64,000 nt of DNA from Acinetobacter phage nACB1, in sequence record OQ032511.1; one strand, 5' to 3'. Below the pieces are notes generated by a model. It made no database searches and was not told the origin of the DNA. It worked only from the letters and a program-made list of their open reading frames with translations. The translations under genes were made by a program, and so were the position numbers. Positions 4,001 to 60,801 of this stretch are shown here, one piece after another. How positions within the stretch are numbered: position 1 is the first letter of the stretch; each line of letters starts with the position of its first letter.

Positions 4001-7000
4001 TCCGCTTCCAAGACTTCAATCAATTCTTACTAGTAGATGGTAAGTTACCTGACAATGTTAAGACTGCAGTATCTGCTGCTATGTATTCTTGGATTGCTGA
4101 GAATGGTTCTAAGACTCTCAATACTGAGAGAGATGTTGCAGGGTTATTATTACTCAATGACATTGATACATTACCTACAACTGTGTTTAACGCATTCACA
4201 GGTATTGGTGATCACCAGTCAGTAGTAACAGGTAGCTTAGGACAGAAAGCACTTGAAGCTCTTGGTTTAAAAGTTGTGTCTGACGTTGACCCTGCTCGTA
4301 AGCAAAAACTTGAACAAGCTCTTGGTACTCTTGCAGCTGTAGCACTTACACAGAATGGTTACTTAGAACATACTGCAATGTCTGTTGCTGAGTTTGAGCT
4401 ACATCAAGCATATGCACAGAATGCTAATGAAGGTTCTACCTTTGGTGATCAAACATTCAAAGGTGGTAAGACTATTAACTTCTTGGTTCCTAAAGCAGGT
4501 AAGAAAGTAGATCAAGTAATCAAATCAGCTGCTGAAACTCAAGGTATTGTTCAATCTTTATTTGGTGTACAGCGTGATATTAAATTACCTTCTCTTGAGC
4601 CTGTAACAAGCACACCACAGTCTTTTAACCGTATGGGTTCTGAACTACCTTCGTACACTAAAGATATGTTAGAAGCTGCTCAGAGCAATGGTTATAAGAT
4701 GTCTATCCCTGCTATGCAGTTTATGGACAATGTTAAGCAAGATGACTTACTTGAGTTGTTTGGTTTTATTAAGCCTAATGCTGATGGTGTTTCATTTGAT
4801 GGTATGCATAAGAAGTTCTGGAAATCTCAATTAGCTTCTAATGAAGCTGTAGAGCGTGCTGTAGCAATCATTAAAGAACAACGTGCTAACTTAGGTGATG
4901 ACTCTAAAGAGTTCTTTTTCGAGCACACCAGTTGGACTAACACGCGTTCAGGTTATGATTCCGCATTTAACTTACAAGCTAATAAGATGCACCGTGCTGT
5001 AGCAGGTATGTCAGCTCATGTAGTAGAAGTAGGAATTGAAGCACCTATTAAGAATGGTGAAACTACTAAGTTTGGTGAGTTCTTAATGGCTGTAGCAATG
5101 GGTGCAGAAGGTGCATCTGATGTTATGGGTATTCAAACTGTAGATAAAGTTTCTGCTGAAACATTCTTACCTAAGTTCCAAGAGTACTTAGCACAAGATT
5201 ATGTACAAGCAGGTATCGAGTCTATGGCAGCTGCTATAGAGACTAAACCAACTAAACAAGATATGGACAACATCAAACGTGTGGTAACTGAGTTTGATAT
5301 GGGGCCTATGTCTGTACGTGCATTACAAGCGTTAGCTCAAATGCACATAGCTGAACGTGATGGTCAACGTACCTTTACTTCAGATATTGGTTTTGAATCT
5401 GATGGTGTAACTAATGGCCCAGTCATTACTAACGTAGCTTTAAATACTGCTGATGCACAGATGTTAGAAGCAGGTGGTATCTTTACTAGCCGTGCTAAAT
5501 CAAATGTACCTACTAACAAGGAGCAAGGTAACGAAGACATCTATGAGCAATTAGGTGGTGTAATGCAAGCTGAATGGACTGCTTATAAAAAAGCTGTTAA
5601 AGGTGGTGCATTAGATTCTGCACTTGGATTAGATGTTATCTACTCTGCCTTTGGTAAACGTAAAGGTGCTAAACCAATCGTAACTACATCTAACTATGGT
5701 GCAGGCATTGCTTCAATTAAACGTGCTAATGCGCGTGAGGTTTTGAATGCCTTCTATACTGGCTTAGAGTCTGCAGGTAAGAAAGGTGATATTGGTGCAG
5801 CACAAGACCTTATTAATGCTGTTAATAAAACCATTAAGTACTCTAACTTTAAACAGAAGTTATCTACTCCATTAGCTGTAGCTAAAGGTGATGTTATGGA
5901 GTTTCTATTAACTCCTGAACAAGAAGCTGCATTATTCTTTGCTGCTGATCTCCAACATGGAGAAGCAATCAAGGAGACCCTTAGTAAAGCTATGGCAGGC
6001 TTTAATGAAGTACGCGATAACTTAACTGAACAAGCAGTTACTGGATTTAAAATCTATGAGTTGATTAGACAGAATGCTATTAATGAAGCTCTTAAGAATA
6101 CTGATGGTGTACTTGTAGATGGTAAGGGTAAACGTCAAGAAGGGCTGACTGCTGATCAAATGAAAGCAGTACTTAAGTCTATAGAACGTTATACCCCATC
6201 TGTAGTTTCAGGTATGGGTAATCTATCTTCTAATAAGAAGAAATCATCTATTCCATTAATGAAGCAAGATACTGTATGGGATGGTTCTGCTATGTCAGAA
6301 CAACAGTTTAAGTTCTTAGGTTCTTGGCAACAGTCAGGTACTAAAGAGTTTTCTGTACGATCTGCTATTAAGCGTGATGCTGTATCTGATCCTGGTGTAT
6401 CTGGTTTAGCTCTTATCATTCAATCTATTGATGCCATGATTGCTCATACTACTATCGGTAAGATGCCTACTCAAAACTACCATGATGCTAACGCATCTGC
6501 TGTAGGTCAGGGTAAAGCTATGGCTAAGATTCAGAATGAAGCATTCGTTGATGGTGTTATGCATACACATGTTAATCGTGAGTTTGCACGTGCCTTAATG
6601 AATCCTTTGACTTTAGTTTTAGATAACAAAGCATTCTACACAGCTAATAAAGATGAGATTAATGATGCTATGAAAGGTATCTTTATGTCTCAGAAAGTAG
6701 CTACTGCCTACGAGCGTGATTTAGCTAAGCTTACTGGAATGCTTAAATGGGTGAACGTAAATCAGTATGGTACTCAAGGCGGTCATTTCCAAATGACTAA
6801 TGCTAAGCGTAAAGAGATTCTTGATGAGATTGCTCAGCTTAAGAAAGACTATGCTAAAGATGCGGCATTAGCTAAACGTATTGATGAGATTGTTGAATCA
6901 GGTTCTGAGCCTCAAACTGTAGAAGAACACTTACGTCAGAACATTATCATGACTGGTAAAGAAGTGGTTCCATTGCTTCAAGCAGAACTTAAACAGTTCC

Positions 7001-10000
7001 AAGGTAAAGAAGGTCAGGTAGGTAAGTTCTCTCAGTTCTATGACAGCATATTAGATTTAGTAACTAAGCAAATGCCTAGTGACTTAGAGATTAATTACTT
7101 CTCTGATCTTGAAGCGCCTGAAAATGTTAATGGCTTAAAAGAAGCAGTGGATAACAATAACCCTGCTTGGTTCACTACAGGTAAGGACGGTAAACCACAG
7201 ATTAATATTCTACGTTCTGATGCTCCTATTCGTGCACAGGTTCTCGTACATGAGCTTGTACACGCTATCACTGTAGATTCTATTAGTCAGGTTCGTAAAG
7301 ACCCTACAGCGCACGCTAAGGCTGCAGAATCACTAGCTAAGCTTGATGCGCTCTATGAAGATATTAAAGCGAAAGTAAATGCTGATCCTAATGCTACTGA
7401 CTTACAGAAGTATGCAGTTAAGAATGTAGAAGAGTTTATTGCTACTGGTTTCTCATATCCTGAGTTTGTTGATTACCTAGATAGCCAATTGGCTCCTAAA
7501 GCAGCTCGTGGTAAGAATCGTATTGTTACTGCATTACGTTCATTTGTAGATAGTATCCTAGGTGTGCTTGAGAGCTTCACAGGGCGTAAGTATTCAGCTA
7601 AAGATGCAACTGCACTAGAAGCATTAATCATTGACTCTACAGAGTTCTTAGGACGTGCTCCTACACAAACCACTGGTACTCAAACAAGTATCTTTGGTGC
7701 ACCACAGCAAGCGCGTAATACTGTAGATGGTTACACTGCTTATGAAGTATTTAGTACTTTACCTAAACATGCTAACCCACAATTCCAAGCTCATTTGAAT
7801 CAGATGATGCGTCAGGTTGCTGACACAATCTATTCAGGTTTAGATCAAAAACTTATTGATAACAATGATGGTGCTTGGTCTATTGAGAAAGCATGGGAAG
7901 AATACACAACTGCAGGTAATGCTGAGACTACCGAGACTGCTGTAACTGCAGGCTTCCGTATGACTGAGCAAGAAGCATTTGCTGTTGAGTCTATCTATGC
8001 AGCTATGGTTCATGGTTTAAAAGATAAGTCTATGACTCAGGTGTATGCTGAAATGAATAAGGCATATAACTCTGCTAAAGCTAGACTTAAACCAGAGAAC
8101 TTCTATCAAGGTGATTGGGCTACTGCTACTCGTCAAGATAAAGCTGATGCTCAAGATATGTATGATTACTTCTTTAAACTAGGCCCAACTAATAAGCAGC
8201 ACTTAGCTCGCTTTATCTCTATGGCTCTAGGTTCTGAGCAAGTAAATAGTATGCTTGGTTTTGCTGTTAAAGATACTTCTACAGCTCCTTCAAATACATT
8301 TGAAAACATTGTTGAGAAAGCTAATACCTTACTTGATTTTGTTGGTGGTGTATTAACTAACAGTAACTCAGCTCAGAATATTAATAACCGTGTTGGTCTT
8401 CTTGCAAAAGAGTTAGCACGTATTGATATGAAGAATCGTGAACATGCTGTTGGTCGTGTTGAAGCACAGTTAGAAGCTATTGCTGATTACACAGATGGTG
8501 TATCTAAGAAGTTACGTGAACGTGTTGTTGAATTTGCAGATAAAGATGCGATTGCTAATAACCGTAATACTTATGTACGTCTTGCAAGTAACACTACGCG
8601 CTTAGCTGCTAAAGGTGATTTGTGGACTGTACTCGATACATTGAAAGAAGCTAACAACATTGATAATCCAAATAGTACCTTAGGTATGATGGGTGAAATT
8701 ATTAATGAAGCTGCCAACAATGACTCTACTAAAAACCATGTAGAGAAGATGATGCGTATCACTAAGTTAAATAACCAAATGAAGGAGAACATTCGTCATA
8801 CCACTACTAAGAATGTTATGAGCACATTTGAAGATAATGGTCAGTATCTTACTAAAGATCATAAGGCTGCTCTTACTACTATGTTACGTTCTGATGTACA
8901 GGTGTTGAGTACTACATACTCTACTAAAGAGATTGCTCAGTTATACACTGATGGTAAGTTCTTACAGAATGAAACTGCTGCAGTAGTTAATCAGCTTAAA
9001 GCTTTAGGTGGAGATCAAGTAATGATTAACCGTGCTAAGCAATTAGCTAAGTATATGCTTACTGGTAATTCATCTATTGGTTTAGCTAAGAATGCTCAGC
9101 TTATTGTTTCTGGTTTTAACTCTGGTGAAGTAGTTGATCTGACTGACCCACGTGTTGACTTGGTAGATAAACTTGCAACTATGTATGCAATTGAATACAC
9201 AGATAAAGGTACTCGTAATCGCCTTGGTGAAGTGTTTAAGCGTGAGCTTAAAAACAAAACTAATGGTGTAGATACTTCTATCAAGTTCCATCATGAGCTT
9301 TCTAAAGAAGCACGTAATAAGTTATTCGTTGATAATGCTACGTCTGTTGTTAAAGGTTTTGTTCCTGAGATCACTAACCCTAACAAAGAAGTTCGTATTG
9401 CTACTAACGATACAGAAGCTCGTCTATATAAAGAGCAGTACTATCGTGAAGTTAAGTCTATGGTTAAAGACAAGTCTGATAAGACTGGTGCTACTCCTCG
9501 TTTATTTATTACTGATGAAGCTAACGTACAGCGTTTAGTATCAGGTGCTGTAGAGATTGTTTCTACTAACCGTAAAGGTACTGGTGTAAACATGGATGCT
9601 AAAGAATTTACTTATGCTGTTAATAGCGTACGTATTCCTAACAGTCCATTATATAACCCTATGCTTGATCAAGATGTTTATATGGTTCCTAACTACAATA
9701 CTCAGAATGAGGTAGTTGGTTTCTCTTATGAAATGTCAGGTAATAACCGAGATAGTTTATTAGAGCGTAACAATGATTTCTCTGAGTTACTTGGTGCTTA
9801 TGCTGCAACTAACTTTAACAAGGTTACTGTTCCTGATCAGAACAATAAAGTTATTGATGCTGCTTACCAAGACTACAAAGATAACTTTGTTAATAACCCA
9901 CGTGCTTACATTACTGTAGGGCCTGGTGCTACTAACCCTGCATTGGCAGAGACTTGGGCTATGTTGCCAGAAGATACACGTAGATACATTGAATCTAAGT

Positions 10001-11076
10001 TTGGCCCAGATGGTATGGTAATTCGTAATGATGTTTACTTAACTATGTTTGGCTACCGTAAATATTCTTTAAACCAAGCATTCGATAAGATGCCTGAAGC
10101 ACGTAACATGTTTGAGTCTATCTACACAGATGTTATGAATACTCTGTTTGGTGGTAAGGCTCGCTTACGTGGTGTACAAGGTGAACGTGCATGGCAAGAA
10201 GCTGTAAGTACTATGAAAGATATTATTGTTATTCGTAACGTTAAGACTCTTATTGGTAACACTATCTCTAACGCTTTATTGTTATCTGCTCATGGTGTGA
10301 GCTTTACTGATATTGCTAAAGACACTGCTACATCTATTCGTGCAGGATTACAGTACCGTCGTGACATGGCTAACTTGTTATCTATTCGTCAGAAGCAGAA
10401 AGCAGGTGTAGGTGATTTCAATAAACTAGAGCAAGAAGCTTTACGTATTGAAGATTCAATGAGTCGTAACCCATTAGCTGACTTTATCAATGAAGGTATG
10501 ATGCCTACTATTGTTGAAGACTTAGACCCATCTAATGACCACTACTCATACAAGTCTAAGTTACAAGAGCGTATTGATGGTTTAACTACTGATGTACCTA
10601 AGTCTGTGAAGACTGCAGCTAAATGGTTAATGGTATCTCCTGATACTCCGTTGTACCAGTTCTTGAATAATGCTACTCAGTTCTCTGACTTTAGTTCTAA
10701 GTATGTGTTGTATAAACACTACACTACTAAAGCTAAAGAAAAGCTAGGACATGAAGAAGCTATTCAGATTGCTCAGGATAACTTCATTAACTATGACATT
10801 CCTACTTCACGTGGTTTACAGTATCTGAATGATATGGGTGTGGTAATGTTTACTAAATATAACTTACGTATTCAGAAAGCATTATTCCAATTGATGAAGA
10901 AGCGTCCTGCTTCTGTAATGGCTCAAGCCTTATTGATTGGTACTCTTACTAATATGGAAACTGCTATTGACCCTATTGTGTTTACACAGTTTGGTAATCC
11001 GCTACGTACTGGTGCATTTGGTTTACCAAGTGCTTTAGATGAACCTCTTCCTATTAAGATGCTTACTGGACTGTAA
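1078..11076 (+). CDS. virion-encapsidated RNA polymerase (N4 gp50-like vRNAP), 3332 aa
   Basis: Giant ORF; central region has T7-like single-subunit RNAP motifs: FESDGVTNG (A-like), KRKGAKPIVTTSNYGAG (motif B, R/K..YG), NYHDANA (motif C-like HD); size and operon position match N4 vRNAP. Confidence 0.75.
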   Translation: MADYKSLQVSDALSRITNQLKPQVTYGSLGSSVYGRNTNTPDAIAADQQAIQQGQQYYNSIYGKTGSDYVQDAGVALAKGVVSVPQAAAGIVDLLDAGAQFATGQDVQGGRFSKNLADVGVDFATTQDIMSGWFSEGTQRQMQELAALPGMSTEQSLGQNLNSLGSTLGYVADNPSIALNTIIQSLPSIAAGGVVGRGAAALGARGAAGAIGEGTIMSGQAQANMERNAEGYTTGQQALGALGIGVLGGLVGQAGNRIAATRGAADIDQVAAGVGSQAANQGFKSLTVGTATEAAEEAAQSALENVITNVSSGKDAIQGLNQDLVLGTLAGAGMGAAVNAKSSIGTAALEAVQNAANKQIERAKEKISREAPEQTDTPTEQFTDPSSPSYNPSAALVREAKKLTEATTPEEQLDVRNSFNYIMEEQEAYLGGLIETRDAVQNIDNLRQSIVNADAAVERFAESDPAKAEQIAAISANLKEQVAVAEQFIGNEQTLDAHIAEVETKVQEARDIHTRYDSLMQRATTNDETMDTQIFGAPQKFTPEQIEKAINDPKVPEASKPALRALADAVVAQNAVKNIDAVNQQITGKQYDSNYRSTPQYLAQFTRAIKQGNTAQQVNLMREIGAFEQSHVQKAEIVQQGLELASSGQPVQIIRNQDGSWAFNQGEWLSRTAAKKNGAITIASPKQIEAVTKTSEYMQAEAQAITATRNAMEQLDVLNNPNGSVVRPSNVATQSTPETQEVPTQQATDFQAAIDELNSLERDNYDYQPQRRVEDPRESLSQPSFDGAINAESQVPTGTQSTSGTMSSGDTSQVQTPTNTEGTTPVAKAERVASRSVSEDVATEVQTSTEAATQATNEETTEEVVTPEVKKEAEPQDINTVEKADKNPARTAERAKEPKKRNLVIDGFNQRDTVLNRNENFVKRFMNRSNIAPVVESITGKAPTPKQEQALKDFTNFANYFDSKLDIIGSKQEDFRFQDFNQFLLVDGKLPDNVKTAVSAAMYSWIAENGSKTLNTERDVAGLLLLNDIDTLPTTVFNAFTGIGDHQSVVTGSLGQKALEALGLKVVSDVDPARKQKLEQALGTLAAVALTQNGYLEHTAMSVAEFELHQAYAQNANEGSTFGDQTFKGGKTINFLVPKAGKKVDQVIKSAAETQGIVQSLFGVQRDIKLPSLEPVTSTPQSFNRMGSELPSYTKDMLEAAQSNGYKMSIPAMQFMDNVKQDDLLELFGFIKPNADGVSFDGMHKKFWKSQLASNEAVERAVAIIKEQRANLGDDSKEFFFEHTSWTNTRSGYDSAFNLQANKMHRAVAGMSAHVVEVGIEAPIKNGETTKFGEFLMAVAMGAEGASDVMGIQTVDKVSAETFLPKFQEYLAQDYVQAGIESMAAAIETKPTKQDMDNIKRVVTEFDMGPMSVRALQALAQMHIAERDGQRTFTSDIGFESDGVTNGPVITNVALNTADAQMLEAGGIFTSRAKSNVPTNKEQGNEDIYEQLGGVMQAEWTAYKKAVKGGALDSALGLDVIYSAFGKRKGAKPIVTTSNYGAGIASIKRANAREVLNAFYTGLESAGKKGDIGAAQDLINAVNKTIKYSNFKQKLSTPLAVAKGDVMEFLLTPEQEAALFFAADLQHGEAIKETLSKAMAGFNEVRDNLTEQAVTGFKIYELIRQNAINEALKNTDGVLVDGKGKRQEGLTADQMKAVLKSIERYTPSVVSGMGNLSSNKKKSSIPLMKQDTVWDGSAMSEQQFKFLGSWQQSGTKEFSVRSAIKRDAVSDPGVSGLALIIQSIDAMIAHTTIGKMPTQNYHDANASAVGQGKAMAKIQNEAFVDGVMHTHVNREFARALMNPLTLVLDNKAFYTANKDEINDAMKGIFMSQKVATAYERDLAKLTGMLKWVNVNQYGTQGGHFQMTNAKRKEILDEIAQLKKDYAKDAALAKRIDEIVESGSEPQTVEEHLRQNIIMTGKEVVPLLQAELKQFQGKEGQVGKFSQFYDSILDLVTKQMPSDLEINYFSDLEAPENVNGLKEAVDNNNPAWFTTGKDGKPQINILRSDAPIRAQVLVHELVHAITVDSISQVRKDPTAHAKAAESLAKLDALYEDIKAKVNADPNATDLQKYAVKNVEEFIATGFSYPEFVDYLDSQLAPKAARGKNRIVTALRSFVDSILGVLESFTGRKYSAKDATALEALIIDSTEFLGRAPTQTTGTQTSIFGAPQQARNTVDGYTAYEVFSTLPKHANPQFQAHLNQMMRQVADTIYSGLDQKLIDNNDGAWSIEKAWEEYTTAGNAETTETAVTAGFRMTEQEAFAVESIYAAMVHGLKDKSMTQVYAEMNKAYNSAKARLKPENFYQGDWATATRQDKADAQDMYDYFFKLGPTNKQHLARFISMALGSEQVNSMLGFAVKDTSTAPSNTFENIVEKANTLLDFVGGVLTNSNSAQNINNRVGLLAKELARIDMKNREHAVGRVEAQLEAIADYTDGVSKKLRERVVEFADKDAIANNRNTYVRLASNTTRLAAKGDLWTVLDTLKEANNIDNPNSTLGMMGEIINEAANNDSTKNHVEKMMRITKLNNQMKENIRHTTTKNVMSTFEDNGQYLTKDHKAALTTMLRSDVQVLSTTYSTKEIAQLYTDGKFLQNETAAVVNQLKALGGDQVMINRAKQLAKYMLTGNSSIGLAKNAQLIVSGFNSGEVVDLTDPRVDLVDKLATMYAIEYTDKGTRNRLGEVFKRELKNKTNGVDTSIKFHHELSKEARNKLFVDNATSVVKGFVPEITNPNKEVRIATNDTEARLYKEQYYREVKSMVKDKSDKTGATPRLFITDEANVQRLVSGAVEIVSTNRKGTGVNMDAKEFTYAVNSVRIPNSPLYNPMLDQDVYMVPNYNTQNEVVGFSYEMSGNNRDSLLERNNDFSELLGAYAATNFNKVTVPDQNNKVIDAAYQDYKDNFVNNPRAYITVGPGATNPALAETWAMLPEDTRRYIESKFGPDGMVIRNDVYLTMFGYRKYSLNQAFDKMPEARNMFESIYTDVMNTLFGGKARLRGVQGERAWQEAVSTMKDIIVIRNVKTLIGNTISNALLLSAHGVSFTDIAKDTATSIRAGLQYRRDMANLLSIRQKQKAGVGDFNKLEQEALRIEDSMSRNPLADFINEGMMPTIVEDLDPSNDHYSYKSKLQERIDGLTTDVPKSVKTAAKWLMVSPDTPLYQFLNNATQFSDFSSKYVLYKHYTTKAKEKLGHEEAIQIAQDNFINYDIPTSRGLQYLNDMGVVMFTKYNLRIQKALFQLMKKRPASVMAQALLIGTLTNMETAIDPIVFTQFGNPLRTGAFGLPSALDEPLPIKMLTGL

Positions 11077-50058: not shown

Positions 50059-50059
50059 A

Positions 50060-53149: not shown

Positions 53150-53198
53150 TGGTGTCTCCAGAGACTGTTAAAAGATCAATCACACAAGTGAGCGAAGC

Positions 53199-54056: not shown

Positions 54057-54065
54057 TTAAATCTC

Positions 54066-54097
54066 CTAATAAAAATAGCCCCAATTAAGGGGCTATT
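54066..54097 (-). terminator. intrinsic terminator
   Basis: atagcccc-aattaa-ggggctat, minus-strand T-run atttttatt. Confidence 0.6.
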
Positions 54098-54119
54098 TAT
54101 TCAAGCAATTAATTACAGT

Positions 54120-54788
54120 TTATGCACGACCAGTAGGTGTATCATCTTCTGCAGCAAATTTTGCTAAAGCTTCTTCAAATGATTTCGCATGAATAACACG
54201 TACACGCGGTTTTACTTTAGCTTCAGCTTCTTGAGTTGCTTGACCAAAGATTTGTCCAAGTACACCTGCAAGTACATCACGAATTTCTTCAGGAGCACCT
54301 GCAGACATTTCTTTTTCTTCATCTTCGTCAGGGAAGAAGTCAGAAATCGCATCAACGCTATGATCCATGAACTGAGTAAAAGTACCATGTTCTGGGCAAT
54401 AGATCGCATGAAGAATTTCTTCAACACCTGCACCTGATGACAAGATGTGCTTAAGTTTAATCACAAGTTCTTCAGTGTTTTGCAACAATACTTGACGAGG
54501 GTCTTCAATATTGTCTACTTGACGTAGAGTATTCAAAAGCTCTGGAGCAGCTACATGTGCAACTTGACCTAAGATTTGAAATTCTTCATCAACTGGAACC
54601 CATTGTAAGCCTGTTTCAGACACAGCAGGTTTAGTACCAAATGACGCTAGCAAACAAGTATGATTACCTGCTTTACCCATCATTACCACAGCTACCCAAT
54701 CATGGTTAGTAGGGATTTCAATTTCAGCACCTAAGTAAGTTACTGTCTTTGATTTAGTAGGTACTGGTTGTTTAAGTTCTACAAACAT
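54120..54788 (-). CDS. hypothetical acidic protein (222 aa)
   Basis: ORF. Confidence 0.45.
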   Translation of the reverse strand: MFVELKQPVPTKSKTVTYLGAEIEIPTNHDWVAVVMMGKAGNHTCLLASFGTKPAVSETGLQWVPVDEEFQILGQVAHVAAPELLNTLRQVDNIEDPRQVLLQNTEELVIKLKHILSSGAGVEEILHAIYCPEHGTFTQFMDHSVDAISDFFPDEDEEKEMSAGAPEEIRDVLAGVLGQIFGQATQEAEAKVKPRVRVIHAKSFEEALAKFAAEDDTPTGRA

Positions 54789-54801
54789 GTTTTAAATCCT
54801 A

Positions 54802-55107
54802 TTAAGGGTTATTGGAAATTTCCACATCAGGTTCCGAAGGAACCCAAGCCAAGAGATAAGCATCAAATGCTTCTTTAGTAGGGAGTATCTCAAACTGAGC
54901 TACATCATGTAAGCGTATTAAGGCAGCATCTTTACTGTATGATGCTACATACTCACCTTCTAACCAAATAGCATATCCTACTAAAGCAGTATCAAGTAGA
55001 TCACCCATAGAGTTAAACTTGTATCCATGCTTAACTAATACATCCTGAAACTTACGTTTAGATATTGATGAGTTAAACCGTACTGTTTTTACAATTCTTT
55101 CAGCCAT
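54802..55107 (-). CDS. hypothetical protein (101 aa), member of overlapping ~100-aa array
   Basis: ORF; C-terminal ..AFDAYLLAWVP resembles array paralogs. Confidence 0.45.
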   Translation of the reverse strand: MAERIVKTVRFNSSISKRKFQDVLVKHGYKFNSMGDLLDTALVGYAIWLEGEYVASYSKDAALIRLHDVAQFEILPTKEAFDAYLLAWVPSEPDVEISNNP

Positions 55108-55394
55108 GTCTTTAATACCTCTGGGTTATGACTAAGCAATTTAAGTTGAGCTAAGTAGTTTTCATTTACTTTGACACAAGGCCTATGTCGCATGTCTTCT
55201 TTAGGAATTAATGTGAAATAGCCATCATCTAAGCGTATATGTTCACAGTAGTTATACACATACTCTTCACTGTAAGACCGACATAAGTAGCCTAAGCCTA
55301 AGAGTACTTCTATAAACTTATTCCATTCTAAGTTTGATGGTATGTGGAAGTACTTACTTCTTGTATCCACATCATTTACTTGTTTAGTAACCAT
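55089..55394 (-). CDS. hypothetical protein (101 aa), paralog with C-terminal LKLLSHNPEVLKTWL
   Basis: 19-nt overlaps on both sides. Confidence 0.5.
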   Translation of the reverse strand: MVTKQVNDVDTRSKYFHIPSNLEWNKFIEVLLGLGYLCRSYSEEYVYNYCEHIRLDDGYFTLIPKEDMRHRPCVKVNENYLAQLKLLSHNPEVLKTWLKEL

Positions 55395-55675
55395 TCTAAT
55401 GCTGCCTCTGGGTTAGGGGATAATAGATTAAGTACATCTATATCCGCTTGAGTAATAACATAAGCATCTGGGTATAAATCTTTATTAACTACCCATAGGT
55501 ACTTACTATTAAAGGTTAGGGTATCAGTCTTATACGCTTCTGAATTTTGCATCAGTGTCGGAGCATACTTTAGACCTGCTGATAACAATATAGTTGTGAC
55601 CACATCCCAATAGCTACTTGAAGATATGTGTAATACTTTACGCATTGTATAGTTTACTCGCTGTGATACCAACAT
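55376..55675 (-). CDS. hypothetical protein (99 aa), paralog with C-terminal LNLLSPNPEAALEWL
   Basis: Clear C-terminal similarity to 55089..55394. Confidence 0.5.
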   Translation of the reverse strand: MLVSQRVNYTMRKVLHISSSSYWDVVTTILLSAGLKYAPTLMQNSEAYKTDTLTFNSKYLWVVNKDLYPDAYVITQADIDVLNLLSPNPEAALEWLLNK

Positions 55676-55943
55676 CCATTAAAGGAATCATTGGTATATC
55701 TGTATAAGATGCAAGTTCAATATTCTCTGCTAAGAATGCATCACTTGGTTTACCGTCAGAGATAATTAACTGAGCTTCAGCTTGATCAATTACATAGATA
55801 CAAGCATAAAGATGTTTACTCGTTGGGAAGGGTAAACGTGTTACATCTCGAACGTAGTTTGCAAAGGCTTTCACAAACAAACCAACAACTTCATTCTGTC
55901 TTGTAGGCATGAACTTTACATAGTATCGGTTAACTATTCGCAT
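55638..55943 (-). CDS. hypothetical protein (101 aa)
   Basis: 38-nt overlap with neighbour. Confidence 0.45.
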   Translation of the reverse strand: MRIVNRYYVKFMPTRQNEVVGLFVKAFANYVRDVTRLPFPTSKHLYACIYVIDQAEAQLIISDGKPSDAFLAENIELASYTDIPMIPLMDVGITASKLYNA

Positions 55944-56301
55944 TGAATAACTCCCTTAAGTCAACATTAAGATCACGAGCTAGAATATAAGATTCAAACT
56001 CGTCTTGTGTAGTTACCATATGCACTTGGTAAGCAGAAGTAACTACTCCTGATGCAGGTTGGAAGCTGTACTGCATAGTTCTTAAACCATACAACAAGTA
56101 CTGATCATGTAAATTCTTTTGGTTAAAGAAAGGTTTCTTAGGTAGAAAATGCATATTTACTTCTGACAAAGGAACAGCTATGTAATAACCTTTATATCTG
56201 TCATCCATAACTATAGGATTTCCATAACAATCTACATGATCATCATGTTGAATCTTTTGCTTCATTTTGTACATACTCTCTGTAAGGGTGGTAGGGATCA
56301 A
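55930..56301 (-). CDS. hypothetical protein (123 aa)
   Basis: ORF. Confidence 0.45.
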   Translation of the reverse strand: MIPTTLTESMYKMKQKIQHDDHVDCYGNPIVMDDRYKGYYIAVPLSEVNMHFLPKKPFFNQKNLHDQYLLYGLRTMQYSFQPASGVVTSAYQVHMVTTQDEFESYILARDLNVDLRELFNANS

Positions 56302-56554
56302 TTACACCCTCCGCATAGAGATAGTGTACTTGGGCTTCAAGACAAGGCATAAGAAGTAACGAAGTTACTATAGCTGTCTTAGCTAAAGGAGCCAAATCAG
56401 TAACTGCATCTGAATAAAAGGCATGTTTGCTTGTTACATCAAGTTTAAGATATGGCGAACGTGGGTCACGAAATATAGGCCCATTAATAAAACCTGTTTT
56501 AATAAGCCACTCAAAGTTACTTGCTGTGTTAGTGATGGATAGAGTAAGTTTCAT
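56243..56554 (-). CDS. hypothetical protein (103 aa)
   Basis: 59-nt overlap with neighbour. Confidence 0.4.
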   Translation of the reverse strand: MKLTLSITNTASNFEWLIKTGFINGPIFRDPRSPYLKLDVTSKHAFYSDAVTDLAPLAKTAIVTSLLLMPCLEAQVHYLYAEGVIDPYHPYREYVQNEAKDST

Positions 56555-56795
56555 GTCCCTCTCTCATAAATGTTAAAGCTAGTTCCATACGTGCATCAAT
56601 ATCTACTACTAAACATAATTGTTGTAGCTGTAGAATAGTAAAGTCATAAGATACACCTAATGCATTATGTGAACTTGCTTTGTGAGTTTTAAAATTAATA
56701 TCTAAGTACTTATCAGGGAATGTATAGTGAACAACAAATCCCATTGACTGTAATGCTTCAACAAGTTCACCTGATACTTTAGATGTTATTACCAT
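56529..56795 (-). CDS. hypothetical protein (88 aa)
   Basis: RBS gaggaag; first gene after hairpin 56837..56853. Confidence 0.45.
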   Translation of the reverse strand: MVITSKVSGELVEALQSMGFVVHYTFPDKYLDINFKTHKASSHNALGVSYDFTILQLQQLCLVVDIDARMELALTFMREGHETYSIHH

Positions 56796-56836
56796 ACTGT
56801 CTTCCTCAAAGTTAGTTACTAAGCTAAATCTAAAAT

Positions 56837-56853
56837 AGCGTCTGGAAGACGCT
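56837..56853 (-). promoter_or_regulatory. 7-bp stem / GGA-loop hairpin: N4 vRNAP-type promoter candidate
   Basis: agcgtct-GGA-agacgct on plus (template) strand, just after a terminator and 42 nt upstream of ATG 56795. Confidence 0.45.
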
Positions 56854-56855
56854 TA

Positions 56856-56883
56856 ATTAAAAAAGCTACCCGAAGGTAGCTTA
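56856..56883 (-). terminator. intrinsic terminator after gene 56885..57184
   Basis: aagctacc-cgaa-ggtagctt; minus-strand T-run ttttttaatta. Confidence 0.6.
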
Positions 56884-56884
56884 G

Positions 56885-57184
56885 TTAGAGATTATTTAAG
56901 TAGGTAAGTCTGACTCCATTATCAGGCATTAGCATACATGCTCTTGCTAGATCATCTTCAGGTGTTACGATGGTATTAGCAAGTATTATAAGATCATCAT
57001 TAACCATGTCCCAATAGAATGCAGTTAAGTTTGTGTTCCAAGTGCTATTAACCCTAACATAAGGTGAGTTACATATATAACCTGAATCTAAAAGCTCTAC
57101 AGCAAGAGCATACGTTACGTATACTCCACTGATAGTGAACTTGGTATAGTCTGAATTAACAGATGCCATTAGATGTATTCCCAT
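56885..57184 (-). CDS. hypothetical protein (99 aa)
   Basis: ORF. Confidence 0.45.
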   Translation of the reverse strand: MGIHLMASVNSDYTKFTISGVYVTYALAVELLDSGYICNSPYVRVNSTWNTNLTAFYWDMVNDDLIILANTIVTPEDDLARACMLMPDNGVRLTYLNNL

Positions 57185-57750
57185 TTAAAGCCATATGCTG
57201 TTTTTAGTTTACCTTTACATACTTGATGTATGTTTGAACTTGATTCAGGATTTTTACCTAAAGATCGCATTGCAATAAGCACAGATGCGTGTTCTGTAAC
57301 AAGTACACCATTTAAGGTCAACTGTCGTACAGGACTACCATTAGCACCTAAATGAAGACCTTTAAGGTTGTCAGTAACCTTGTTATTAAGATTCTCTTGG
57401 AAGGTTACAAGTTGTAGATTAGATAACTTATACGGTATAGCGCTGTTTATACGATCACAACTAGGTTTGATGTACTTATCATACCCACTATTAACCCAAG
57501 CACTGTACAAGGTATTCCAGTTAGGTTGTGATAATACCCATTCACGTAGTTCAGCTAGTGTGTAATCAGGTGCAGGTCTCCCCATGTTACGAGATGTCAT
57601 TCGTTGGTTTGAGTACATCATATTAACAACACCATTAGGTGTCTTGTTACGTTCTTGAGTCACTACTGAACTACAAGGTTTACAAGTAGCCTTACCTTTT
57701 GAGAAGTTAGTAATGTCTTTAGTTTGGTTACAGAGTTTACATGTTTTCAT
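57169..57750 (-). CDS. zinc-finger / homing-endonuclease-associated DNA-binding-like protein
   Basis: N-terminal CKLCNQ..CKPC; C-terminal NIHQVCKGKLKTAYGFKWEY resembles NUMOD1-type motif (..CxGKRKTAGGYKW); no nuclease core seen. Confidence 0.4.
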   Translation of the reverse strand: MKTCKLCNQTKDITNFSKGKATCKPCSSVVTQERNKTPNGVVNMMYSNQRMTSRNMGRPAPDYTLAELREWVLSQPNWNTLYSAWVNSGYDKYIKPSCDRINSAIPYKLSNLQLVTFQENLNNKVTDNLKGLHLGANGSPVRQLTLNGVLVTEHASVLIAMRSLGKNPESSSNIHQVCKGKLKTAYGFKWEYI

Positions 57751-57761
57751 GATTGTATTCC

Positions 57762-57790
57762 TAAATATTAAAGGGAGTCCGAAGACTCCC
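57762..57790 (-). terminator. intrinsic terminator after RNAP II catalytic subunit gene
   Basis: gggagtc-cgaa-gactccc; minus-strand tttaatattta. Confidence 0.55.
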
Positions 57791-57827
57791 TAGTATATCT
57801 AACTATTTAACAGTTGTTAAGTAGTTA

Positions 57828-59060
57828 TCAGCATATTCCATAGTTTGAGTTCCTGATCTTATTACCTAAGTCATTTGACTTCTTAGTATAAGTAACACGT
57901 TGTTTAGTTACTTGACTTACAAGGAAGCTAAGCATGTCACTCTCTGCAAGCTCTGCACAGATTTCTTTATACCAATAGCGGACAGTATCACAGTGACTCG
58001 GAAGGGAACCAAACGAGTCATGAACAGTTACCACAGGTGAAGAACCACGAGCAAGCATTTCACCCAATACAGCAAGTAAACGAATAACCATAGCAATAGG
58101 TACATGATGTACATTCTTCTCATTGATATAGTCAATGATTGAAACATCTAACATAGCTGAATACTTGTAAATATCTAACATGGTTTGTAATGCATCATCA
58201 CAAGGCTCTGTAGTGTCACCATCTACTGATAGTGAGTCATCAAGCAGCTTGTAAGCTACTTGTACCTTCTTCACATCGAACGAAGCTCTACGGATCACTG
58301 AACGTAATACGTAAGCATCAACTGAGTGAGTAACGTTAGCTACATTTGCTAAGCCTTTCTCTGTACCTTGGTTGATAGACACATACGTTGTAAATGTAGT
58401 GTGGTTAAGCTCATCAACTTCGATACGAGTTTCTTTCTGCTCTAACACTTTAACAATTACATGATGGTTATCAGGTAGTGTCCACGAGTGTTGTAGAGCA
58501 TATGGCTGCCATGTATGTAGTAATGAAGTCATTAGCTCGAATGCAGCAGGAGCTACAACAGCAACAGCTTCATAGAATACTTCTAATAAGTCACCCTCAC
58601 CAAATACCTCTTTAGGTACTGCTGTAGAGCCATAGACAGAAGTCATCATGGCACGCTTAACATCGTTACGTGGAACTACGATTGTGCTCATACCACGTAA
58701 TTGAAGAATCTTATTCATCTCAATAGTAACGTCGGTATATGCATCAGCTCGTTTATTAGATACTAAACCAGTGGCATCAGCTCCACGTACACAACCTGCC
58801 ATAGCAGATAGTAATTGGATACCTGAACATGTAGCATCAAGATGTACAATGTGTCCTGTTGGTTTACCTGCAACTACATTACGTAGTTCATGTACAGCTT
58901 TCAGATATAAAGGTTTAACGTCTGCTTCATCAGCTAGTTGTTCTAACTGATCATAGTTGTCTTTAACCCATTGTATACGTTGCTCAAATAACCATTTGTC
59001 TTTACCAAAGTGGTTAGCAATATCAATGCAAAGGTAGTCTAAAGGTAAATAAGTTTTCAT
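57828..59060 (-). CDS. phage RNA polymerase II catalytic subunit (T7-like single-subunit RNAP C-terminal part)
   Basis: Motif A HLDATCSGIQLLSAM, motif B RNDVKRAMMTSVYGS, motif C VTVHDSFGS. Confidence 0.7.
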   Translation of the reverse strand: MKTYLPLDYLCIDIANHFGKDKWLFEQRIQWVKDNYDQLEQLADEADVKPLYLKAVHELRNVVAGKPTGHIVHLDATCSGIQLLSAMAGCVRGADATGLVSNKRADAYTDVTIEMNKILQLRGMSTIVVPRNDVKRAMMTSVYGSTAVPKEVFGEGDLLEVFYEAVAVVAPAAFELMTSLLHTWQPYALQHSWTLPDNHHVIVKVLEQKETRIEVDELNHTTFTTYVSINQGTEKGLANVANVTHSVDAYVLRSVIRRASFDVKKVQVAYKLLDDSLSVDGDTTEPCDDALQTMLDIYKYSAMLDVSIIDYINEKNVHHVPIAMVIRLLAVLGEMLARGSSPVVTVHDSFGSLPSHCDTVRYWYKEICAELAESDMLSFLVSQVTKQRVTYTKKSNDLGNKIRNSNYGIC

Positions 59061-59077
59061 GGTTTCGCCCTATGAGG

Positions 59078-59347
59078 TTAATGATTAAAGTAATTAACAA
59101 TGTCTTCCCATGCTAAATGACTTAGCATGAGGAATTGGAGATAGTCTTGTTCGTTTAAGTAGATGACACTTCTATCATCTTCAAATTGAGGTAATTCAGG
59201 AAAGTAGTTACATACCCATGACTTGCGGTAGAAGTTAAATGCAATGGATATACAATTAACTTTCCAACCTCTATCAAGCTCACCTATACGATGTTCATCA
59301 GGTAAGTCAGTTACATCAAATATCAGTGTTGCTAGTGAAGTAATCAC
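59078..59347 (-). CDS. small ORF (89 aa) bridging the two RNAP II subunit genes; possible third RNAP piece or frameshifted segment
   Basis: Fills the 255-nt gap between subunit ORFs; overlaps upstream ORF by 32 nt in another frame. Confidence 0.35.
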   Translation of the reverse strand: MITSLATLIFDVTDLPDEHRIGELDRGWKVNCISIAFNFYRKSWVCNYFPELPQFEDDRSVIYLNEQDYLQFLMLSHLAWEDIVNYFNH

Positions 59348-60296
59348 TTGGAACCTCCAGTTTTACTTTGTCATATAAGTCAACAGATGCTTTCTTATAT
59401 GCAGCTCCCTGTGGTGTGATGTGATAGCCTTGCATGTAAAGTCTTCCACGTTTATCAGGCTTAACAGTGATATACATCTTGTTCCCATTCATACGAATGA
59501 GATTGTAGAAGTATGCAGACTGCTGAAGATGCTTCTTCCAGTTCTGATGTTGTTGTGCTATTGCACGTTGTAGATCAATCGTATTCATTAAATGAGAGTC
59601 TTTAACTACATTGAGATCAGTAGTTGGCTCCTCTTTAATGTTGTCTAATACCCACTCATTGAGCGTGTATTTATAACGATTCATCAGGTTAAGTACATCA
59701 AGACAGATAGGCTCATTGTGGTGGTTTATAGAACCTCCTAGTATCAATGATTCACCTTTAATAGTGAGATACCCACTATCACGATTACCTCGTAATGTCT
59801 TTGGTTTAGATAGCATTGGTGGTAAGTAACAAGCACGTTCAACATAGGCTTGTAGCTCATCATTCAGTTTGAAGTTACTACGTACATAGACAGAGCTATT
59901 AACGTGATACTTAACTAAATGATAGAAGTTGGTATTACATACAACAGCTAATACTTCAGCCATAGTTTGAATACCAACACGAGTATCATCAAAGCCAATA
60001 GCAGGAGCTAATTGACTTGCTAGATTGTTAAGTGTGGTTTCAGTACTAAGACTAGCTATACGTACGAATATGTCTGTTACAAGCTCTTTCAAGTCCATTT
60101 GTGATACATGGTCTTTACGAGTTTGTTTGGATGCATACGAGCTTGGTGATTGACACCAATTATTAATAAGCTCTACGCCTTGGTTAATACGATTCTCAAC
60201 TTCAGGTATTGTAGCCATATAATCAAGCACAGCTTTCTTAATACCTTTACGAGAGAACATATTCTCAATTGCCATTTGGCCTTCAACTAAATTCAT
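59316..60296 (-). CDS. phage RNA polymerase II N-terminal subunit (T7 RNAP N-terminal domain-like)
   Basis: 326 aa just upstream of catalytic subunit, as N4 gp15/gp16; no catalytic motifs (expected). Confidence 0.45.
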   Translation of the reverse strand: MNLVEGQMAIENMFSRKGIKKAVLDYMATIPEVENRINQGVELINNWCQSPSSYASKQTRKDHVSQMDLKELVTDIFVRIASLSTETTLNNLASQLAPAIGFDDTRVGIQTMAEVLAVVCNTNFYHLVKYHVNSSVYVRSNFKLNDELQAYVERACYLPPMLSKPKTLRGNRDSGYLTIKGESLILGGSINHHNEPICLDVLNLMNRYKYTLNEWVLDNIKEEPTTDLNVVKDSHLMNTIDLQRAIAQQHQNWKKHLQQSAYFYNLIRMNGNKMYITVKPDKRGRLYMQGYHITPQGAAYKKASVDLYDKVKLEVPSDYFTSNTDI

Positions 60297-60353: not shown

Positions 60354-60713
60354 TTATTCAGCAGATGGTGCTACTGGATTTGCAATACCAAGTTTACTGA
60401 GATCAACCACTACAGGTGTGTTCTCATCACGCGCTAAGCTGATCTCAACTTGAATTAAAGATGCTGCTTGTTGCTCGGTTAACACACCTTGTTTGATTAA
60501 CTCAACAATTTGTTTCTCGGCTGCTTTCTCTAGGTATAAACCTAAAGTTAAATCACCAACTACTTTGACACGCGTACCATCACCTAAAGGTAAATATAGG
60601 TTTACATAAGCTAAACGTGTCTTTGGTTCTTGGTTTCCACGGCGATTGCCTTGTGCATTGTTAGCAGTAGCAGTTGCAGTGTTGTTTGTATTTTCAGGGA
60701 ATTGAAATGACAT
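60354..60713 (-). CDS. hypothetical protein (119 aa)
   Basis: ORF. Confidence 0.45.
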   Translation of the reverse strand: MSFQFPENTNNTATATANNAQGNRRGNQEPKTRLAYVNLYLPLGDGTRVKVVGDLTLGLYLEKAAEKQIVELIKQGVLTEQQAASLIQVEISLARDENTPVVVDLSKLGIANPVAPSAE

Positions 60714-60801
60714 AATGATAATCCTGTGAAGAAGATTGGCGAAATTGCCACTTAAAAGCGTAGCGTTAAAGCTATCGTGCAGGTGAACCTACCGCGAAGC
60801 A

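Follow-up and report, generated by a model that had tools for sequence, protein, structure and literature searches.

Hairpin promoters that are read on single-stranded DNA are a hallmark of the N4-like phages. To our knowledge, N4 and LUZ7 are the only phages in which such promoters have been mapped by experiment, and the two differ with regard to their middle promoters. Concerning N4, the determinants, as given in a review, comprise a C on the template strand at +1, lying 11 nt from the loop centre, a loop G(-10) R(-11) A(-12), a closing pair C(-9):G(-13) needed for extrusion and stability of the hairpin, and a G at -8 of the stem, contacted by the specificity loop (PMC4496689). The three promoters were recovered in NC_008720—P1 at 90-102 (5 bp, GAA), P2 at 557-573 (7 bp, GGA) and P3 at 4546-4562 (7 bp, GGA)—and all of them have the C:G closing pair and a GG start at +11/+12; what an earlier note on this DNA had stated about N4 (5-7-bp stem, 3-nt loop, GGA in P2) was thus right. 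The promoters of LUZ7, known from ONT-cappable-seq (PMC9163698, together with the bioRxiv supplementary tables S2 and S3), have loops of 3-4 nt (ttc, tac, tcc) and start at a G located 12-16 nt from the hairpin centre. Its early promoters, those of the virion RNA polymerase (vRNAP), reach to 9.6 kb and include PE8, AGCGTTC-tcc-GAACGCT, with the G start 14 nt from the centre; the hairpin PM3/T41, GCCGCT-tcc-AGCGGC-tctttcG, its G start also 14 nt from the loop centre, is at the same time a terminator (3' end 39374, efficiency 0.54-0.68) and the strongest middle promoter (start 39375) (PMC9163698).

The stretch analysed here, called the window, covers 64,000 nucleotides of Acinetobacter phage nACB1 (record OQ032511.1), for which the published analysis used generic promoter predictors (PMC10057805). 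The phage is N4-like (Schitoviridae), encodes a vRNAP of 3332 aa as well as a two-subunit RNAPII (genes 59316..60296 and 57828..59060), and shares the gene order of the Acinetobacter schitovirus XC38. Its vRNAP is aligned by phmmer to N4 structures in the C-terminal domain only, the central polymerase domain, too diverged, giving no phmmer match to the N4 mini-vRNAP, in which W129, K114, R119, D901 and R904 serve in promoter recognition. All genes at the locus lie on the minus strand, so that the plus strand is the template, as the earlier note had correctly taken it to be. The features of the early region and of the locus are as follows:

63729 to 63745, minus strand: motif E, GCTACGCTTAGAACTGG, the template strand of which contains the mini-hairpin heptamer GCGTAGC
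60748 to 60764, minus strand: motif E, GCTACGCTTTTAAGTGG, preceding gene 60354..60713 as well as the RNAPII genes
56859 to 56882, minus strand: canonical intrinsic terminator, AAGCUACC-UUCG-GGUAGCUU followed by UUUU, which ends the early/RNAPII operon
56837 to 56853, plus (template) strand: the focal hairpin, AGCGTCT-GGA-AGACGCT, a perfect 7-bp stem with a GGA triloop
56830, minus strand: G predicted as the transcription start, at +15 from the loop centre and the first base of a conserved GATTTA
56796 to 56829, minus strand: conserved leader with the RBS GAGGAAG (56801-56807), preceding the ATG at 56795
56529 to 56795, minus strand: ORF of 88 aa, the first gene past the boundary and presumably the first gene of a transcription unit

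The 7-bp stem and GGA loop directly behind a canonical terminator, as first described in the earlier note, were found in the sequence exactly at 56837-56853 of the plus strand. The terminator stem-loop occupies 56863-56882 and its T-run 56859-56864, with a gap of 9 nt between this stem-loop and the focal hairpin; in the relatives L019 and L020, which have no HNH gene, the same terminator directly follows the gene of the RNAPII large subunit. The focal hairpin is intergenic, 41 nt from the ATG at 56795; the two RNAPII genes lie upstream of it, as do four early-region terminators, including the last one. It is found ~8 kb from the inferred early end, i.e. at roughly 10% of the ~79-kb genome. The 88-aa protein occurs in identical form on two independent contigs (exact-protein look-up); a protein search in IMG/VR gave no relative of it, and neither of the two ORFs flanking the hairpin had a homologue in the phage collection (protein search), where the region 54000-60000 had no near-identical DNA match. 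Within Rfam, tRNAs alone reached the threshold and no known RNA family covered any of the hairpins. The exact 17-mer of the focal hairpin has six matches in IMG/VR, all in unrelated GC-rich contexts and therefore attributable to chance.

The focal hairpin is not alone in the window. Class B was defined as the clade-specific hairpins—in the window, XC38 and the phage At2—in which a C:G pair closes a T[TC]C or TAC loop. Based on 200 dinucleotide shuffles, hairpins of at least 6 bp with a C-T[TC]C-G loop are expected 0.07 times on the sense strand of the window and were seen seven times there and not once on the other strand, well in excess of chance; XC38 and At2 exhibit the same strand-specific pattern of template-strand triloop hairpins. 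The earlier note had named 63882, 49749 and 48424 as places where the same geometry recurs. All three carry hairpins on the plus strand, as it said, but the succession of terminator and hairpin is repeated only at 49749, no terminator standing in front of the other two. Seven further members were found beyond that list. The family, except for the focal hairpin, consists of the following template-strand hairpins, written in the sense orientation:

63882 to 63898, plus strand: class A, ACTGTAC-tcc-GTACAGT, near the early genome end, 20.5 bits
56355 to 56369, plus strand: class B, AGTAAC-ttc-GTTACT followed by tctta-TG, 30.1 bits, predicted start G56348
54830 to 54844, plus strand: class B, GGTTCC-ttc-GGAACC, predicted start G54823, 35 nt before the ATG at 54788
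53188 to 53202, plus strand: class B, GTGAGC-ttc-GCTCAC, predicted start G53181, 32 nt before the ATG at 53149
50181 to 50199, plus strand: class B, AAGGGTAC-tac-GTACCCTT (tac loop), the tRNA cluster following 33 nt beyond the predicted start G50176
49749 to 49763, plus strand: class B, GCATCC-ttc-GGATGC, 32.9 bits, 16 nt behind the terminator 49780-49803, predicted start G49742
48424 to 48438, plus strand: class B, CCGTAC-ttc-GTACGG, predicted start G48417
24010 to 24024, plus strand: TGGCAG-tcc-CTGCCA with a G:C closing pair, predicted start G24003
19727 to 19742, plus strand: class B-like with a 4-nt loop, CCCACC-tcac-GGTGGG followed by tttct-TG, 14 bits, predicted start G19720
16404 to 16418, plus strand: class B, CTGAGC-ttc-GCTCAG, at the primase/Sak4-like gene junction, predicted start G16397

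Among 20 aligned sites from the three phages, the G at +14 from the loop centre is invariant (20/20) irrespective of the stem length, accompanied by Y at +13 and T at +8, and the closing pair is C:G in 17 of the sites and G:C in the remaining three. The stems themselves are unrelated at orthologous gene junctions; thus at the primase/Sak4-like junction they are wholly different, being GCGCAC in XC38 and CCGTAC in At2. Orthologous hairpins were found for 54830 (before XC38 gp78 and At2 9700), 53188 (XC38 67481, At2 10674) and 48424 (At2 16165, XC38 62682-62718), and 19727 is the positional orthologue of XC38 34640. At 24010 the sequence itself is conserved, the predicted start being 24 nt before the first gene of the block 23979->11128, and 63882 is conserved in XC38 (within the 944-bp terminal repeat), At2 (with one compensatory pair), L021, L022 and L024. 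A sigma-54-like reading of TGGCAGTCCCTGCCA at 24010 was rejected on inspection, as the GG-to-GC spacing is 10 and not 12. Hairpins of the template strand that carry a G-R-A loop are a real, strand-specific and gene-proximal signal in this genome. That class B hairpins serve mainly as terminators for the phage polymerases was discarded with regard to the invariant G at a fixed distance and to the many members that have no U-tract; moreover, the hairpin at 54830 falls within the 3' end of the preceding ORF, 26 nt before its stop codon, which is incompatible with a hairpin type acting mainly in termination.

With a class B covariance model trained without it, the focal hairpin scored 17.3 bits (E 0.03), the tenth-best match in the window. 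The true class B members reached 26.6-32.9 bits—the lowest of these values belonging to 50181, found by the model despite its absence from the training set—so that the focal hairpin stays 9-16 bits below them; the matches ranked after it had at most 14 bits and the UUCG terminators of the phage gave no score at all. It is an atypical family member, since its loop is closed by T56843:A56847 instead of C:G and the first G is found at +15 instead of +14. The T at +8 is present, T and A occupy +13 and +14, and the template strand has its first downstream C at 56830, which corresponds to the G displaced to +15 (loop centre: 56845).

Orthologues of the focal hairpin were identified in six relatives (L021, L022, L023, L024, XC38 and At2), the homologous unit across them consisting of the tcc hairpin, the leader, the RBS and ATGGTA; the leader, RBS and ATGGTA start can be aligned for the window, L021, L022, L023 and XC38. 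In the alignment of the seven lineages the stem is 100% paired, six of its seven pairs exhibiting compensatory double changes and none a one-sided change, and the covariation of 0.79, compared with 0.24 in shuffles, was equalled in none of 500 shuffles. All orthologues have a G followed by (A/C)TTTA at +14/+15. The one in XC38 (70360), with 33.5 bits, is a consensus member of class B. The focal hairpin is a real, evolutionarily conserved element, and its structure, non-randomness, strand specificity, compensatory conservation and conserved G and leader are matters of observation. The sequence GATTTAGCTTA was also considered as a repeated promoter motif and dropped, being found once in the window at zero mismatches and at chance level with one mismatch; it is a homologous leader in common with At2. 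As for more distant phages, the early regions of the IMG/VR relatives L012-L018 contain GC-tYc-GC hairpins that have TGG at +12 to +14; with an RNAPII identity of 44-46%, these relatives were set aside as too distant to be sources of orthologues.

Based on the above results, the focal hairpin is somewhat better explained than not as a LUZ7-type promoter of the first middle transcription unit, probably read by RNAPII from a start near G56830, which may double as a back-up terminator. It should be noted that we infer promoter activity, start site and polymerase from the sequence. The reading is supported by a hairpin family that is non-random on the template strand, by a geometry matching that of the mapped LUZ7 promoters (7-bp stem, tcc loop, 41 nt before the ATG, conserved G at +15 as the predicted start) and by the precedent of PM3, likewise with a T:A closing pair and a tcc loop. 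It is also favoured by the homologous unit with its covarying stem, by orthologue tails that do not resemble those of terminators and by a score above the lower-ranked matches. Furthermore, with a strong terminator just upstream and the next family start (56348) beyond the ATG at 56795, the 88-aa gene would, without the focal hairpin, have no promoter of its own. What speaks against this reading is the T:A closing pair together with the A at +14 and the low score, as well as the need in N4 for a C:G pair in extrusion and stability (PMC4496689); the resemblance to terminators, dealt with below, points in the same direction.

Mechanistically, transcripts arriving from upstream would stop at the UUCG terminator 56863-56882. 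The inverted repeat would then be extruded, or melted by a cofactor binding single-stranded DNA, and the plus (template) strand would fold into the 7-bp hairpin capped by the GGA triloop. This structure would be recognized by a phage RNA polymerase, more likely RNAPII, by comparison with the LUZ7 middle promoters, and less likely vRNAP. Transcription could start at G56830, ~15 nt further on, so that the transcript of the 88-aa gene 56529..56795 would carry a leader of 35 nt (GAUUUAGCUUA...GAGGAAG). In read-through RNA the same hairpin followed by AUUUUAGAUUU may represent a weak back-up terminator, as in LUZ7 T41/PM3.

The alternative that survives best, in our opinion less likely but plausible, is that the hairpin acts only in RNA, as a back-up terminator or 3'-end stabilizer behind the UUCG terminator, with the 88-aa gene being reached by read-through. 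In the RNA sense, i.e. on the minus strand, it reads AGCGUCU-UCC-AGACGCU, with four G:C pairs in the 7-bp stem and the tail A-UUUU-AGAUUU; this tail (AUUUUAGAUUU) is consistent with a weak intrinsic terminator, the hairpin is among those classed as terminator-like by the terminator scan, and the RNA fold of 56800-56900 contains two independent hairpins. Both the focal hairpin and the adjacent terminator have TAAGC...GCT followed by a T-run, as has the single UUCG hairpin after the RNAPII large-subunit gene of At2, and the At2 counterpart of the focal hairpin is an 8-bp UUCG hairpin with a U-rich tail, terminator-like in appearance; the focal hairpin thus resembles a diverged tandem copy of its neighbour. 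The same explanation would suit the lack of the invariant G(+14) and of the C:G closing pair of the promoter family, and the LUZ7 analogue T41 does terminate 54-68% of transcripts. Against it, all strong terminators of the window have stems of 8-11 bp, loops of 4-6 nt and a T-run at the stem, with no triloop among them. The orthologous tcc hairpins of L021-L023, XC38 and L024 keep the G at +14/+15 and the leader with no adjacent U-tract: the bases right after the stem are tatatagattt, taattgaattt or ttagtgcttta, giving the RNA tails UAUAUAGAUUU, UAAUUGAAUUU and UUAGUGCUUUA, whereas in the bona fide terminators of the same genomes UUUU directly follows the UUCG hairpins. The XC38 orthologue is, in addition, a perfect class B member, the class B hairpin at 54830 precedes the stop codon of the upstream ORF, and the T41 hairpin is itself the strongest middle promoter of LUZ7.

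Much less probable is a bona fide early promoter of the N4 P1-P3 type, extruded by supercoiling and read by vRNAP via the central loop purine, with the start ~11 nt downstream. The 7-bp template-strand stem and the GGA loop with its central purine are those of N4 P2/P3, and the DNA fold of -6.6 kcal/mol lies within the range of P1-P3 (-3.7 to -6.7 kcal/mol), close to P3. The distance from the early end is ~8 kb, the early promoters of LUZ7 reach as far as 9.6 kb, and PE8 has the very sequence of the L022/L023 orthologues. Three of the N4 determinants (PMC4496689) are, however, absent: the loop is closed by T:A, the stem has C at -8 (56842), and at 11 nt from the loop centre the template carries A (56834), which precludes a G start there. 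The site, moreover, is downstream of the RNAPII genes and the four early-region terminators, and family hairpins lie as far as 40-48 kb from the early end (24010, 16404), which would not be expected under N4-type logic (PMC4496689). Finally, the early region has a motif of its own, GCTACGC-N8-GG (motif E), with 22 sites in seven genomes, all of them within ~8.3 kb of the early end; the site at 60748 has orthologues at XC38 75887 and At2 3882. Motif E keeps six of seven positions of the GC-rich heptamer of N4, with the GG one nt further out, and is a better candidate for the vRNAP promoter than the focal hairpin. The idea of class A (63882) as the sole early vRNAP promoter is weakened, as motif E sits between 63882 and the first genes. 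The proposal of an N4 vRNAP-type promoter, made in the earlier note, can thus be retained in part: for an N4-like phage with a vRNAP, a strand-specific hairpin signal and compensatory conservation, a hairpin-promoter architecture is a reasonable reading; the attribution to P1-P3 did not hold, given the missing C:G pair, -8G and start at 11 nt, the position downstream of the RNAPII genes and the better candidate in motif E.

A functionless chance inverted repeat is very improbable, even if the flanking ORFs are orphans and hairpins with a 3-nt loop and a stem of at least 7 bp are hardly in excess in the 64 kb (eight seen, ~6 expected), because 7-bp hairpins with a TCC loop on the sense strand are expected 0.06 times and observed twice, the site is intergenic and its pairing has been kept by compensatory changes in seven lineages (covariation 0.79 vs 0.24).

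Returning to the hairpin as a LUZ7-type middle promoter, a wider scheme may tentatively be proposed for the clade formed by the window phage, XC38, At2 and four metagenomic relatives, namely that the N4 promoter logic has been re-partitioned. The vRNAP would use three to four bare mini-hairpin heptamers (template GCGTAGC), lacking an extended stem and starting at a GG 12-13 nt off; the extended G-A-A/G-G-A hairpins would have been taken over by the two-subunit RNAPII as ~10 middle promoters over 48 kb, including that of the tRNA operon. The focal hairpin would then be the first of these, in dual use—terminating read-through as RNA and restarting transcription as DNA—and perhaps derived from a tandem duplication of the adjacent terminator followed by divergence. 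If these ideas are true, the LUZ7-type hairpin middle promoter would be widespread and the AT-rich middle promoters of N4 the exception, recognition by vRNAP could be reduced to a 7-nt mini-hairpin, and a single hairpin could be both terminator and promoter. The window and the relatives offer a compact cross-genome test set, with ~10 hairpins of fixed loop-to-G spacing and a separate early motif that has the N4 heptamer and no extended stem. With these motifs, transcription units would also be better annotated in the schitoviruses of Acinetobacter, which are under consideration for phage therapy.

Compared with the known systems, the focal hairpin is the kind of signal to be expected in N4-like phages and involves no new mechanism. 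With N4 P1-P3 it shares a template-strand hairpin just upstream of a gene in a phage with a vRNAP, a stem of 5-7 bp and a 3-nt G-R-A loop (PMC4496689), the 7-bp stem and GGA loop being exactly those of P2 and P3. [quoted passage not shown] Concerning the d(GCGNAGC) or C-GNA-G mini-hairpins (PMC13037366), the exceptionally stable triloop motif is found in class B (C-GAA-G), motif E (GCGTAGC) and N4 P2 (GCGGAGC), whereas the focal T-GGA-A has no C:G pair to close the sheared G·A loop, so that the 7-bp stem must account for its stability (-6.6 kcal/mol). Tandem rho-independent terminators are similar in that two stem-loops in series, both with a T-rich tract behind them, immediately follow the final gene of an operon; here, however, the second hairpin differs by its triloop and its interrupted U-tract, and its orthologues keep the G and the leader at a fixed distance with no adjacent U-tract. 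LUZ7 PE8 has the same stem and loop as the L022/L023 orthologues, from which the focal hairpin departs only by a swap of the two innermost pairs, but in LUZ7 it counts among the early (vRNAP) promoters and its loop is closed by C:G; its identity with the L022/L023 hairpins is almost certainly coincidence and not homology. LUZ7 PM3/T41 comes from another host and clade with no sequence homology, its start site and 3' end having been measured while the start of the focal hairpin is predicted, and the focal hairpin has in addition a separate strong terminator 9 nt upstream. With its tcc loop, T:A closing pair, stem of 6-7 bp, U-rich tail and intergenic position at the end of one transcription unit and the start of the next, PM3/T41 is, by analogy, the closest experimentally mapped counterpart of the focal hairpin.

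The window comes from an N4-like (Schitoviridae) Acinetobacter phage, whose early genes occupy the right end, on the minus strand, and are followed by the genes of the two-subunit phage RNA polymerase (RNAPII) and then by the middle and replication genes, the late genes being on the plus strand; phage XC38 has the same gene order. A protein of 3332 aa shows, in its C-terminal domain, a match to the N4 virion RNA polymerase (vRNAP); its central part is 65-70% identical to the vRNAPs of the Acinetobacter phages XC38 and At2. With phmmer, its C-terminal third alone aligned to structures of the N4 vRNAP, and aa 900-2100, the central polymerase region, had no match to the N4 mini-vRNAP, which would fit with a diverged promoter specificity.

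Main features of the window
1078..11076: ORF of the vRNAP
56837-56853, plus strand: focal hairpin, agcgtct-gga-agacgct
56863-56882: stem-loop of the terminator for minus-strand transcription, AAGCUACC-UUCG-GGUAGCUU followed by UUUU
57828..59060 and 59316..60296: ORFs of the RNAPII subunits
60764-60748 and 63745-63729, minus strand: sites of motif E, an early-region motif
63882-63898: class A hairpin, ACTGTAC-tcc-GTACAGT

A hairpin with a 7-bp stem and a GGA loop behind a canonical terminator, as described in the earlier note, is indeed present when read from the plus strand. Its stem is perfect and its loop has 3 nt; in plus-strand coordinates 9 nt separate it from the terminator, and RNA folding of 56800-56900 yields two hairpins, each independent. 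The first ATG after it is at 56795. Since all genes from ~35000 to 64000 are carried by the minus strand, the GGA loop lies on the template strand, so that the purine-centred template loop which the note had claimed agrees with the gene strands. The adjacent segment 56885-57811—an HNH endonuclease gene (57169..57750), the terminator belonging to it (57772-57791) and a 99-aa orphan ORF (56885..57184)—is an insertion relative to the contigs L019 and L020; in XC38, an endonuclease gene splits the RNAPII large subunit. Further along the minus strand, at 54802-55943, four successive, slightly overlapping ORFs of ~100 aa each (54802..55107, 55089..55394, 55376..55675 and 55638..55943) may represent a paralogous array, L019 having one fewer.

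The ORFs flanking the focal hairpin had no homologues in the phage collection searched. An exact-protein look-up led to L019 and L020, 92-98% identical to the window and devoid of the HNH module; they carry this terminator and this tcc hairpin directly after the RNAPII large-subunit gene. Four near-complete relatives (L021-L024; 67-89% identity) were reached by way of RNAPII homologues, and in each of them a tcc hairpin of 7-9 bp precedes a homologous leader, RBS and ATGGTA gene start.

Orthologues of the focal hairpin
L022, L023: AGCGTTC-tcc-GAACGCT
L021: TAAGTGTGC-tcc-GCACACTTA
L024: ACCCTGC-tcc-GCAGGGT
XC38 (70360): ACCCTCC-tcc-GGAGGGT, consensus member of class B (a family of template-strand triloop hairpins), 33.5 bits

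Compared with L022 and L023, the two innermost pairs of the focal stem are swapped. In the alignment of seven lineages the stem is 100% paired, with double (compensatory) changes in six of the seven pairs and one-sided changes in none; its covariation is 0.79 vs 0.24 in shuffles, as high a value being reached in 0 of 500. A G and then (A/C)TTTA are kept at +14/+15. Hence the element is real, and selection acts on its pairing.

The window contains 41 perfect hairpins of at least 6 bp with a 3-nt loop vs ~22 expected; in nine of the 41 the plus-strand loop is GAA or GGA, and all nine lie within minus-strand gene blocks. The form C-G(A/G)A-G occurs seven times vs 0.07 expected from 200 dinucleotide shuffles, the scan finding none on the opposite strand, and the same behaviour is seen in XC38 (8 vs 0.10 expected) and At2 (7 vs 0.07). 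In the genome-wide scan proposed in the earlier note, the refuting outcome named there did not occur: such hairpins are not equally common on either strand or within genes.

Class B was defined from 20 sites in three phages—the window, XC38 and At2—aligned on the loop. Position +14 from the loop centre is always G, irrespective of whether the stem has 6 or 7 bp, Y at +13 and T at +8 are common to all, and the hairpins stand 15-50 nt ahead of start codons. Orthologous gene junctions carry class B hairpins with unrelated stems, e.g. CTGAGC, GCGCAC and CCGTAC at the primase/Sak4 junction of the three phages. A covariance model built from this set found the following members outside it, with no match above noise on the plus strand (late genes).

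Additional class B members
50181-50199: tac loop, ahead of the tRNA cluster
19727-19742: 4-nt loop
XC38 62682-62718

The tac-loop hairpin is located 33 nt upstream of a minus-strand unit of four tRNA genes (Ser, Thr, Tyr and Pro; region 49816-50199), a terminator (49780-49803) following directly downstream. The stretch 49091-49742 on the minus strand, ~650 nt long and ORF-poor, extends from a class B hairpin (predicted start G49742) to a strong terminator (49091-49118) and has no minus-strand ORF >45 aa; its predicted RNA structure is stronger than that of shuffles (z -3.2, from just 20 shuffles). Similar ORF-free gaps are present in At2 and XC38, the latter (63150-63460) with 74-82% nucleotide identity; Rfam gave no match, and the stretch may be a structured non-coding RNA. 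The palindrome TGGCAG-tcc-CTGCCA (24010-24024) is part of the divergent intergenic region that precedes the thymidylate-synthase/replication block. XC38 and At2 keep it in sequence, not just in structure, and its closing pair is G:C instead of C:G; possibly it is a hairpin promoter that additionally binds a protein.

The focal hairpin is an atypical member of the set. The class B model gives it 17.3 bits (E 0.03), compared with 26.6-32.9 for true members and ≤14 for the next matches; its closing pair is T:A vs C:G in 17 of the 20 aligned sites, and position +14 is an A, the G being displaced to +15. We lean, by a little, towards a promoter that possibly serves as a terminator as well. The 88-aa gene downstream (56529..56795, minus strand) would otherwise be promoterless, because a strong terminator lies just upstream of the hairpin and the next family member starts past the gene's start codon. 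That the hairpin is a terminator without promoter role is less likely, though plausible: its tail is AUUUUAGAUUU, it looks like a diverged copy of the adjoining terminator and also resembles the single UUCG hairpin after RNAPII-L in At2, and the invariant +14 G of the family is absent, but its template G-G-A triloop agrees with the promoter class, and its orthologues are without an adjoining U-tract, yet retain the G and the leader. The strong terminators of this phage have stems of 8-11 bp, loops of 4-6 nt and an immediate T-run, and its UUCG terminators gave no score at all against the class B model. It should be noted that the two roles are not exclusive, because the PM3 hairpin of the Pseudomonas phage LUZ7 has also been called an intrinsic terminator, T41.

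The earlier note had proposed a promoter of the N4 vRNAP type; this interpretation is supported in part, a hairpin promoter being a reasonable reading. Extrusion in N4 needs a C:G closing pair plus a loop 5' G and 3' A, and the polymerase recognises -11 A/G, -10 G, -8 G and +1 C (PMC4496689); a scan of the N4 genome recovered its hairpin promoters P1, P2 and P3, each with a GC-tYc-GC core and a GG start exactly 11-12 nt from the loop centre. The C:G closure, the -8G and the start at +11, which define P1-P3, are all absent from the focal hairpin; it is therefore not of that type, and a strict vRNAP early promoter is improbable. A chance inverted repeat is scarcely credible.

A better candidate for the vRNAP promoters is motif E (GCTACGC-TT-nnA-nnn-GG), noticed at the genome ends and represented by 22 distinct sites in seven genomes, since the RNAPII genes need expression before RNAPII exists. 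On the sense strand of whole sequences it is confined to ~8.3 kb from the early end, 40-50 nt ahead of early genes at orthologous positions (XC38 79249, 78426 and 75887; At2 85, 871, 2130 and 3882; also L021-L024). Its template strand, GCGTAGC, is without an extended stem and belongs to the mini-hairpin sequences GCGNAGC (PMC13037366). Six of the seven positions of the N4 heptamer GCGGAGC are kept, among them -8G, -10G, -12A and the C:G closure; relative to N4, the GG is displaced outwards by one nt. The T at the centre of the heptamer agrees with the tac loops found at early promoters of LUZ7. Motif E and the class A hairpin are the sole conserved motifs found upstream of the RNAPII genes, and the former is probably the true vRNAP promoter of the clade. 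Class B hairpins occur solely downstream of the RNAPII genes, reaching 40-48 kb from the early end; parsimony and the analogy with LUZ7 make them more likely RNAPII (middle) promoters, of which the focal hairpin would be the first.

The class A hairpin differs from class B in that the sequence of its stem is conserved. It is also found in XC38 (at 221 and 78605, within the 944-bp terminal repeat), L021, L022 and L024, and with one compensatory pair in At2, and it always precedes the second E motif by 75-160 nt; it may be a promoter, a terminator or a protein-binding/replication element. The early regions of more distant IMG/VR relatives (L012-L018; 44-46% RNAPII identity) contain several hairpins (A)TGxGC-tYc-GCxCA(T) with TGG at +12 to +14, having an N4-like GC-heptamer and extended stems, unlike motif E.

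In the genome paper comparing nACB1 with XC38, promoters were assigned by generic predictors only (PMC10057805). Hairpin promoters are already known as a kind in N4-like phages, to which the focal element would add one; the clade-wide picture—motif E, class B and dual-use hairpins—is somewhat more interesting than this element alone. The focal element is predicted to work in the manner of these promoters. In LUZ7, mapped starts place hairpins at early and middle promoters alike (PMC9163698); their loops are ttc, tac or tcc, and transcription begins at a G lying 12-16 nt from the hairpin centre (PMC9163698; bioRxiv supplementary table S2). Class B has this geometry and not that of N4. The closest mapped analogue of the focal hairpin is PM3/T41: the strongest LUZ7 middle promoter, it has a tcc hairpin likewise closed by T:A, which was called as an intrinsic terminator as well (3' end 39374, start 39375, efficiency 0.54-0.68).
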